Origin: Escherichia coli
Lineage (GTDB): Bacteria > Pseudomonadota > Gammaproteobacteria > Enterobacterales > Enterobacteriaceae
Strand: one strand, 5' to 3'
DNA: 64,000 nucleotides
NCBI RefSeq assembly: GCF_045037415.1
Contig: NZ_CP173438.1
Within the stretch, counting starts at the first letter, position 1, and the number at the start of each line of letters is the position of its first letter. Made by a program: the position numbers and the translations under genes. Below, one piece after another: positions 1-1,535 of this stretch. The notes beneath the pieces are model-generated. The model was not told the DNA's origin, did not search any database, and was given only the letters and a program-made list of their open reading frames with translations.

Positions 1-283
1 AACCACTGTTTTCTGCGGATTTCTGTTCGAGCTGAACTGTTCTCTGTGCTACTTCTTGAGTTGTTAGCTGATTTTGTTGTTGTGTTTCAGCCAGTTTCTG
101 AACCTGTAATTCAGCTGTTTTGGCCCTTGCTTCTGCCGCCTGGGCGCGGGATTCCGCATTTTTTAAACGTTGTTCCAACGCCGCCAGTCGAGATTCGATA
201 CTGCTAATATCCGTTTGCGCATGTACCGTTGTAGCACCGGTCAGCAAAGCAATTAACACTGCCAAAGTTGTTTTTTTATACAT
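1..283 (-). CDS. scrY: sucrose porin ScrY, N-terminal part (gene runs off the window start)
   Basis: Minus-strand ATG at 283; translation [51 protein letters not shown]... is a signal peptide followed by the coiled-coil N-terminus typical of ScrY; reading frame stays open to position 1; lies directly downstream of scrK as in scr regulons. Confidence 0.7.
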
Positions 284-327
284 AATTTGTCGCGTCCCAT
301 CAGAGAATTATAAAAATTGCTAAAATG

Positions 328-341
328 CTAAACCGGTTTAG
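328..341. promoter_or_regulatory. perfect 14-bp palindrome CTAAACCGGTTTAG; candidate LacI/GalR-type (ScrR) operator upstream of scrY
   Basis: Exact dyad symmetry with central CG, about 45 bp upstream of the scrY ATG; related copies at 387-400 and 1391-1420. Confidence 0.45.
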
Positions 342-386
342 GTGTTGATAATAAAGCTGACTTTTTAGCCAGAGCAATTATTTTCG

Positions 387-400
387 CTAAACCGATTTAG
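387..400. promoter_or_regulatory. near-palindrome CTAAACCGATTTAG; second candidate ScrR operator
   Basis: One-mismatch copy of the 328-341 palindrome in the scrK-scrY intergenic region. Confidence 0.4.
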
Positions 401-450
401 TAAATGTGACAGGCACGACAAATCGGGTTACAGATACAACAGCAGGATCA

Positions 451-1371
451 CTATTGTGAAGGGAGATCGTGTTGTCGGGGTAAGGCGGTCATCGCGCCTT
501 TAGCCGTGGTCGCCAGAGCACCACAAATCTGAGCTTGTGCAATGATTCGTTCAAGCTGTCTGGTATTTGTTGGTATTCCAGAATCAGCCAGACCGGCAAG
601 TAATCCAGCGACAAAAGCATCTCCTGCCCCGGTCGTATCGACGACAGAAACAGGTTTGGCGGGATAGTGGATAAACTGCCCCTGAAAATACACAAGTACG
701 CCATTTTTTCCTTGTGTAATAAGCAATAAAGTCAACGGATAACGTTGTACTAATGAATATGCGCCTTGCTGAACCTGGCTTTCGTCACTGATGAATAACA
801 ACTCTTCTTCGGACAATTTAGCGATATTCGCCAGCGAAAGCGCACGATCAAGGTATTTCCTTAACAGCGCTTCACTCTGCCAGAGATCGCTGCGGATATT
901 GGGATCAAAACTGATGTTTCCGCCAGCCTGACGTATTTTCTCCATAGCCAGAAATGCGGTACTTCGGGAAGGTTCTGCACTGAGCGCAATGGAACAAAGA
1001 TGGAGCCATTCACCCGGCCCAAATGCAGGAAGGTCATCAGGTTGTAAAAAAAGATCGGCACTTGGGCGTACCATAAAGGTAAAGTTTCTTTCTCCTTGCT
1101 CATCAAGTCCTACAGCCACAATTGAGGTGCGATGTTGAGGATCAAGAGACATATAACGTGTATCAACATTTTCTGTACTCAGTGTTTGATACATAAAGCG
1201 ACCGAAAGGATCATCGCCAACTTTGCCAATAAAGGCACTTTTCCCCCCCAGCCTTGCGATACCGACTGCAACATTAGCAGGCGCCCCACCAGGACACTGT
1301 AGTAGTCTCCCCTGGCTTTCGGGTAATAAATCAACAACCGCATCACCGAGTACCCATACTCTTGTGCTCAT
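451..1371 (-). CDS. scrK: fructokinase, PfkB/ribokinase family (ScrK-like)
   Basis: 306-aa ORF; PfkB signatures (GGAPANVAVG near N-terminus, DTTGAGDAFVAGLL near C-terminus); strong resemblance to enterobacterial ScrK over the whole length. Confidence 0.85.
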   Translation of the reverse strand: MSTRVWVLGDAVVDLLPESQGRLLQCPGGAPANVAVGIARLGGKSAFIGKVGDDPFGRFMYQTLSTENVDTRYMSLDPQHRTSIVAVGLDEQGERNFTFMVRPSADLFLQPDDLPAFGPGEWLHLCSIALSAEPSRSTAFLAMEKIRQAGGNISFDPNIRSDLWQSEALLRKYLDRALSLANIAKLSEEELLFISDESQVQQGAYSLVQRYPLTLLLITQGKNGVLVYFQGQFIHYPAKPVSVVDTTGAGDAFVAGLLAGLADSGIPTNTRQLERIIAQAQICGALATTAKGAMTALPRQHDLPSQ

Positions 1372-1390
1372 AAAGGCTCCAATATACTAA

Positions 1391-1420
1391 TTGCTAAACT
1401 AATTAAATCGGTTTAGCAAT
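1391..1420. promoter_or_regulatory. inverted repeat TTGCTAAAC-N12-GTTTAGCAA containing TAAATCGGTTTAG; candidate ScrR operator in scrK promoter region
   Basis: Dyad symmetry read from sequence, 20-50 bp upstream of the scrK ATG (1371, minus strand); shares the half-site of the 328-341 palindrome. Confidence 0.4.
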
Positions 1421-1535
1421 TAAAGCATAAACGCTGCTCAGGAGAGAACAATATTCAGCAGTGGTTACCCGGTATTTTGTAGTGGAAACGTGAATATGCC
1501 GGGATTAATCATCTACCCGGCACTGTTTATCTCAC

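Follow-up and report, generated by a model that had tools for sequence, protein, structure and literature searches.

The scrK-proximal end of a chromosomal sucrose (scr) regulon in the queE-ygcE interval of Escherichia coli, with three putative ScrR operators

The first 1530 bp of the stretch analysed here, 64,000 nucleotides of an Escherichia coli contig (NZ_CP173438.1; the whole stretch is called the window), are very probably the scrK-proximal end of a chromosomal scrK / scrYABR sucrose regulon. This regulon takes up the entire queE-ygcE interval, which in K-12 and most other strains is occupied by a leader and array of clustered regularly interspaced short palindromic repeats (CRISPR). Earlier publications already cover the locus and where it lies on the chromosome, its mutual exclusion with CRISPR-II, its function and its operators. 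Window positions 1-1535 are 100% identical to many E. coli chromosomes. When 5426 complete E. coli genomes were queried with the scr segment of the window, it was found in 987 of them, at 958 chromosomal and 38 plasmid places, and the exact junction between scrK and ygcE recurred in 840 genomes.

Two genes of the regulon are seen in the window itself, scrK (451..1371) and the 5' part of scrY (1..283, codons 1-94, open at the window start). Both lie on the minus strand, in agreement with a sequence-only reading of this DNA that had described scrK followed by the start of a ScrY-type porin on one strand, leaving the strand unstated. The truncated ScrY open reading frame (94 residues) translates into a signal peptide followed by a heptad-rich, coiled-coil-like N-terminal extension specific to ScrY, and is 65% identical to the N-terminus of a Citrobacter-like plasmid ScrY. 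The fragment alone had no match among the NCBIfam 20 family models, which were used throughout with their curated cut-offs, and its identity was therefore taken from the full-length protein in identical genomes. There ScrY, a LamB-family porin, has 505 residues, and residues 93-505 align end to end with PDB 1A0S, the crystallised sucrose porin of pUR400 (754 bits, E=5e-226).

The DNA to the left of the window was read from E. coli SK1144, which is collinear with the window at 99.99% identity over 63.5 kb. Its gene order is queE on the plus strand, followed by scrR, scrB, scrA, scrY, scrK and ygcE, all six on the minus strand. ScrA (sucrose EIIBC; TIGR01996, 649.6 against a cut-off of 559.3), ScrB (TIGR01322, 549.8 against 356.4) and ScrR (TIGR02417, the fructose/sucrose repressor subfamily, 462.8 against 389.55) each exceed the threshold of their family. 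Together with ScrK and ScrY, these three proteins of SK1144 give the composition of a scrK-scrYABR sucrose phosphotransferase system (PTS) regulon. The same extension, in which scrY is followed by scrA, scrB, scrR and then queE in genomes 99.99-100% identical to the window, bears out the earlier expectation that the remainder of a regulon adjoining ygcE lies past the window start, and the source genome would be expected to carry the same genes.

ScrK is a 306-residue ATP-dependent fructokinase of the PfkB family, as indicated by its NCBIfam match and its relatives in the PDB. It aligns over its full length with the fructokinase equivalog NF006957 (512.7 bits, cut-off 450), and among solved structures it is closest to chains deposited as fructokinase (5EY7, E=1.8e-97). 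A more distant homologue is 1TYY (E=1.1e-73), a 'putative sugar kinase' in its deposit, which we take to be the aminoimidazole riboside (AIRs) kinase of Salmonella. That homology and the RefSeq product name 'aminoimidazole riboside kinase', which stands in all matches, could be taken to mean that the enzyme is an AIRs kinase and the cluster not primarily a sucrose system. Such an assignment is very improbable for a protein that passes the curated fructokinase cut-off, is closer to a deposited fructokinase than to 1TYY, and is encoded next to genes for a sucrose PTS enzyme, a sucrose-6-phosphate hydrolase and a sucrose porin. In addition, the cloned 6.6-kb scr locus of strain SCU-147 confers rapid growth on sucrose (PMC11251922). 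As the fructokinase cut-off is exceeded and 5EY7 is closer than 1TYY, the RefSeq label for ScrK is, judged from its relatives, misleading and an inconsistency of annotation. In hundreds of E. coli genomes, the Prokaryotic Genome Annotation Pipeline gives ScrK the AIRs kinase name and calls ScrY merely 'carbohydrate porin'.

This locus is well covered by published work. Stephens et al. 2024 (Front Microbiol 15:1409295, PMC11251922) found the scr genes to be native to E. coli F strains and to B2 lineages, ST131 and ST1193 among them, and reported their position beside queE, with no flanking insertion sequence (IS), at the CRISPR2.2 site noted by Díez-Villaseñor et al. 2010. In a 2025 survey of uropathogenic E. 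coli, 'Region C' (ygcE-queE) contained scr genes in 47% of the strains and a CRISPR array in 46% (PMC12736100). The chromosomal scr of the B2 and F strains (SCU-147, ST131, ST1193) shares with the window the same DNA, the same position, the scrK / scrYABR organisation and the two operators at scrY (PMC11251922). Two cloning primers of Stephens et al. match the window exactly, scrK43F at 1482-1504 and scrY1058F at 470-489. By analogy with the cloned SCU-147 locus, which the same primers match, the allele in the window would be expected to allow growth on sucrose. The published work aligned the scrY promoter only, and not the scrK promoter; otherwise there is no substantive difference (PMC11251922).

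Comparison with other sucrose systems places the locus more closely. The scr genes of pUR400 (Salmonella) and of Klebsiella pneumoniae comprise the same five genes in the same order, with two promoters, ScrR operators and a CRP site upstream of scrY. These regulons were reportedly worked out by Schmid, Lengeler, Jahreis and co-workers, Cowan et al. (1991) and Jahreis & Lengeler (1993). Plasmid scr loci of the Citrobacter/Klebsiella type represent a different allele with 64-75% DNA identity to the window; ScrK is 69% and ScrR 83% identical between the two types, and unlike the plasmid-type loci, scr in the window is chromosomal at a fixed E. coli site. The csc regulon (cscB-cscK-cscA-cscR) of E. 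coli W and EC3132 resembles scr in that it serves sucrose catabolism, includes a fructokinase of the PfkB family and has paired operators for a repressor of the LacI family. However, csc is a non-PTS system with a permease and an invertase in place of the porin, PTS enzyme and sucrose-6-phosphate hydrolase, and it has another locus and another operator motif. The gene content and order of scr ruled out csc as the identity of the locus described here.

On the chromosome, scr occupies the interval that in K-12 belongs to CRISPR-II. There, 1372 bp between ygcE and queE hold an AT-rich leader and two arrays in which the 29-bp CRISPR repeat of E. coli recurs, and these arrays are the CRISPR-II (2.2/2.3) locus; the RefSeq feature table of K-12 annotates nothing in this gap (7376-8747 of the retrieved stretch). 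The sequence-only reading had placed queE, instead of scr, beside ygcE in K-12. The lack of scr in K-12 held true, but queE is not adjacent to ygcE, as the 1372 bp with the CRISPR arrays lie between them. When the scr allele was aligned to K-12, there was no homology between the two stop codons and scr was confined to the interval. Similarity ends a few bases past the queE stop, and homology with scr-negative E. coli restarts at window position 1531, five bases before the ygcE stop. CRISPR-II of K-12 (CRISPR2.2-2.3, between ygcE and ygcF, i.e. queE) and scr thus share the same interval and the same stop-codon bounds, and their contents are mutually exclusive. Beyond scr, the core-genome flank begins with ygcE (1536..3014, minus strand), an FGGY-family sugar kinase identified from its open reading frame, family and gene order, and continues with yqcE, ygcW and ygcU as in K-12.

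An 'empty site' for scr was looked for with a chimeric query that joined the scr junction sequences. It was found in no genome; the 364 genomes with a short interval (e.g., EcN) instead contain a CRISPR leader and a minimal, two-repeat array in 473 bp. The strains used in the published comparison have about 0.5 kb in this place (PMC11251922), whereas relative to K-12 the replaced segment is 1372 bp.

The simplest reading of these boundaries is that the whole intergenic allele may have been replaced via recombination in the flanking genes. Alternatively, scr could have arrived by a mobile-element insertion, mediated by a transposon or IS and coming from a plasmid. Copies of scr on IncF plasmids, 6601 bp long and 98.96% identical from the scrR stop to window position 1492, lie between IS1 elements and would fit such an origin, as would the 38 plasmid places of the segment in the survey. 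Still, insertion is a rather unlikely explanation. No IS, repeat, transposase or other mobile-element remnant was seen at the chromosomal scr junctions, and Stephens et al. likewise saw no flanking mobile elements (PMC11251922). The breakpoints coincide with the stop codons of queE and ygcE, and the chromosomal allele has junction segments of its own, 81 bp at one end and 38 bp at the right end (1493..1530), which are absent from plasmids and from scr-negative strains. This right junction is bounded by the end of plasmid scr identity at 1492 and the start of the alignment with scr-negative strains at 1531. A GC content of 46-48% in the scr locus is not Klebsiella-like, and the plasmid copies may equally derive from the chromosome. 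Allele replacement in the flanking core genes therefore remains the preferred reading of how scr came to this site. Within the right junction, a hairpin (TGCCGGG-N12-CCCGGCA, 1497-1522) directly 3' of the ygcE stop codon is probably the ygcE terminator.

The occupation of the CRISPR-II site by scr coincides with the absence of the remaining type I-E machinery from this region. The 29-bp CRISPR repeat GTGTTCCCCGCGCCAGCGGGGATAAACCG, which is present in K-12 and EcN, was found nowhere in the 64-kb window with up to six substitutions, and the window holds no E. coli CRISPR-II array at ygcE-queE. Because of this and because the gap between cysH and iap measures only 543 bp (17331-17875), the strain of the window is without the type I-E cas locus and the CRISPR-I array between these genes, and its CRISPR-II site is taken by scr. 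In SK1144, a Hok/Gef gene is annotated in the cysH-iap gap.

The control regions of scrY and scrK contain three related sites that are putative ScrR operators. A search of all 64 kb for the 14-mer CTAAACCGGTTTAG, with two mismatches allowed, returned only 328-341, 387-400 and 1403-1416, i.e., three matches against 0.13 expected, and in shuffled sequence three matches were reached in one of 100 cases. A fourth 14-mer with three mismatches (12865-12878) is not palindromic and was set aside as chance. Likewise, the window has six GCTAAAC heptamers, four of which fall within the scrY and scrK control regions. The perfect palindrome at 328..341 (CTAAAC-CG-GTTTAG) and the related dyad CTAAACCGATTTAG at 387..400 are both present as the sequence-only reading had described them. 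The former, here called O2, would be the downstream operator of the scrY promoter according to its sequence, its conservation and the layout of pUR400. It lies just downstream of the -10 element and overlaps the expected transcription start. The latter, O1, lies upstream of the -35 element, with its centre 59 bp from that of O2. At scrK, the canonical 14-mer is TTAAATCGGTTTAG (1403-1416), about 38 bp before the start codon; on the coding strand, the core of this putative operator reads GCTAAACCGATTTAA (1403..1417) within a control region of 1388..1422. The dyad described earlier at 1391-1420 proved to be real and lies inside a larger 35-bp palindrome, but only the core at 1403-1417 is conserved and not the whole interval.

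Conservation of these sites was judged from diverged scr loci on plasmids of E. coli (Citrobacter-like), K. pneumoniae, Leclercia, K. variicola, Pantoea and Rahnella and from a K. aerogenes record, whose core DNA is 64-68% identical to the window. O2 is identical in four of five diverged loci and one base off in the fifth. The most conserved 14-mer of the whole scrY region is O2 itself (341-328, mean identity 0.99 against 0.74 overall), followed by the O1 site (399-386, 0.97), and upstream of scrK the best-conserved 14-mer is 1417-1404 (0.97 against 0.66 overall). The earlier placement of the palindromes in the scrY and scrK control regions is thereby upheld. All loci with the scrK-scrY arrangement have two sites 5' of scrY whose centres are 58-59 bp apart, plus a single site 34-39 bp upstream of the scrK start codon; the scrK operator of the window differs from those of other lineages in having A/T instead of G/C at two positions. 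The three sites have the form of LacI-family operators (14-16 bp palindromes with a central CG, near a promoter), and the arrangement of two operators bracketing the -35/-10 elements of scrY plus one at the scrK promoter is seen in sequence, position and conservation across lineages. The DNA-binding domain of ScrR (residues 3-62) is identical at 57 of 60 positions between the window type and the Citrobacter type, which fits an operator that is unchanged across lineages. Two 14-bp ScrR operators around the scrY promoter have been found conserved in eight species (PMC11251922), and the scrK and scrAB promoters are both repressed by ScrR (PMC4521459, citing Jahreis & Lengeler 1993). The view that the three palindromes are conserved ScrR repressor sites is thus supported, with binding itself expected from the literature on the pUR400 and Klebsiella orthologues.

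Two loci depart from the common arrangement. In K. aerogenes NCTC10006, the order is scrK-scrA-scrB without scrY (985-3434 of the retrieved stretch), and CTAAAACGTTTTAA, the 'Cra-like box' of PMC4521459, is found upstream of scrA in place of two canonical ScrR sites. On a Rahnella aceris plasmid, scrK and scrY are divergent and share a 250-bp region (3405-3654 of the retrieved stretch) that has only two weaker operator-like sites, AAGAACCGGTTTAG and GAAAACCAGTTTAG.

Perhaps the palindromes could instead be bound mainly by Cra (FruR), the global regulator of the host and closest paralogue of ScrR, or be cross-regulated by it. ScrR scores 236.6 bits against the Cra equivalog NF008452, well short of the cut-off of 385. 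An effect of Cra on scrAB and a Cra-like box, TAAAACGTTTTA, have been reported in E. aerogenes (PMC4521459), and this box was found upstream of scrA in the K. aerogenes record. Nevertheless, a leading role of Cra is quite improbable at the sites described here, which read CTAAAC-CG-GTTTAG and not TGAAAC-GTTTCA as in the Cra box. They co-occur strictly with loci that contain scrR, are conserved along with the DNA-binding domain of ScrR, and have no counterparts elsewhere in the 64 kb.

It is hardly credible that the sites are chance AT-rich dyads or transcription terminators. The intergenic DNA is AT-rich and a terminator-like hairpin was called at 372-357, but chance does not account for three matches against 0.13 expected, nor for sites that are the best-conserved 14-mers in loci of about 65% identity while the adjoining bases drift. 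The sites are also fixed in position with respect to the start codons and to the -35/-10 elements, and their central CG is typical of operators of the LacI family. The Rfam scan found no element; its only match, a sub-threshold one to an archaeal small nucleolar RNA inside ygcE, was taken as chance. An inverted repeat at 388-398/420-430 is not conserved and was also taken as chance. The hairpin at 372-357 was rejected as a terminator, as it sits inside the scrY promoter.

Based on the alignment and the published layout of pUR400, the scrY promoter (348..377, minus strand) would consist of a -35 element TTGCTC (377..372), an 18-bp spacer and a -10 element TATTAT (353..348). In the 6-sequence alignment of the scrY control region, the invariant columns are TT of the -35 and TA..AT of the -10 element (TAnnAT), between the two operators. 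Since these invariant bases spell the -35 and -10 elements between the scrY sites, O2 would cover the expected start site. Another promoter from a consensus scan, TTTACT/AATAAT (404..377), was rejected, being unconserved, whereas the key bases of TTGCTC/TATTAT are invariant and this pair lies between the operators as published. Just upstream of O1, a CRP-like element (TGTGA-N6-CGACA, 405..420) was noted from the sequence and the alignment, with its centre about 72 bp before the expected scrY start. Its TCACA half does not vary in the scrY alignment, nor does a TTTG block, and a CRP site at 405-420 is plausible. For scrK, a candidate TTTAAT just upstream of the operator would fit most lineages, and TTGATT-16-TTTAAT across the operator would fit Mangrovibacter and Kosakonia.

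The scrK operator has one further feature. Its 35-bp palindrome (1388-1422) is made up of arms at 1388-1404 and 1406-1422 that are 88% complementary. After the operator GCTAAAC-CG-ATTTAA, the coding strand of scrK has one more perfect half-site, GTTTAGC (window 1399..1393; GCTAAAC at 1393-1399). Other lineages were tested by scanning one genome per species with the core 15-mer only, so that the half-site was left unconstrained by the query. Of the 120 matches, 12 were found immediately 5' of a scrK homologue, all in Enterobacterales (Raoultella, K. oxytoca, a Klebsiella metagenome-assembled genome, Edwardsiella, two Enterobacter, two Mangrovibacter, Kosakonia, Lelliottia, Pantoea and an unclassified enterobacterium); the remaining matches, in unrelated phyla, were put down to chance. 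A half-site of the form xTTTAGC or GTTTAAT was present in all 16 Enterobacterales lineages, these being the 12 scanned genomes, the window and three plasmid types. It begins 9-13 nucleotides after the start of the right half of the operator, most often at an offset of 10, and the intervening bases vary. A description of an extra ScrR-type half-site after the scrK operator was not found in the accessible literature, which did not cover Jahreis & Lengeler 1993. It is possible, and no more than a tentative proposal, that the scrK operator is not a simple dyad but a composite of three half-sites, in which a GCTAAAC-CG-GTTTAA core is joined by (G)TTTAGC about one helical turn downstream.

Several points weigh against reading this region as a functional scr regulon. 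The window proper holds only scrK and 94 codons of scrY, and scrA, scrB and scrR of the source genome would be those of near-identical genomes. Some isolates with scr grow poorly on sucrose (Stephens et al., PMC11251922). The scrK site is two mismatches away from a perfect palindrome, and the operators of the exact allele found here are predicted sites.

If the regulon works as its relatives do, sucrose would cross the outer membrane through ScrY, and ScrA, a PTS enzyme, would import and phosphorylate it. ScrB would then split the product into glucose-6-phosphate and fructose, and ScrK would phosphorylate the fructose. These steps are established knowledge of the pUR400 and Klebsiella regulon. 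ScrR, a repressor of the LacI/FruR family, would bind the 14-bp, CG-centred palindromes and repress both promoters, acting at scrY through two sites on either side of the -35/-10 elements, the downstream one over the start site, and at scrK through the single site ahead of its start codon. Fructose or fructose-1-phosphate would release ScrR, and catabolite control is probably added through the CRP-like site upstream of O1. For ScrR binding, the inducer, the promoter hexamers and the role of CRP, this scheme would follow sequence interpretation or the literature on the orthologous pUR400 and Klebsiella systems.

Away from scr, the window differs from SK1144 by four mismatches and one gap over 50 kb. 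The rpoS gene is an intact open reading frame in the window (27904-28932), and the SK1144 record annotates rpoS as frameshifted. To the left of the window in SK1144 (1-1660 of the retrieved stretch), mazG, annotated as frameshifted, follows directly after relA; in K-12, mazEF lies between them.

As the scr system is already known, its finding here has little discovery value, and its use lies in annotation. The finding identifies the window as DNA of an scr-positive, ST131/B2-type E. coli without type I-E CRISPR-Cas in this region, corrects the misleading RefSeq name of ScrK and provides exact coordinates for the operators and for the 1530/1531 junction. The third half-site at the scrK promoter would be a small, testable regulatory detail. 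If it is real, ScrR might bind in an alternative register or make a second contact over the transcription start of scrK, so that scrK would be repressed differently from scrYAB.

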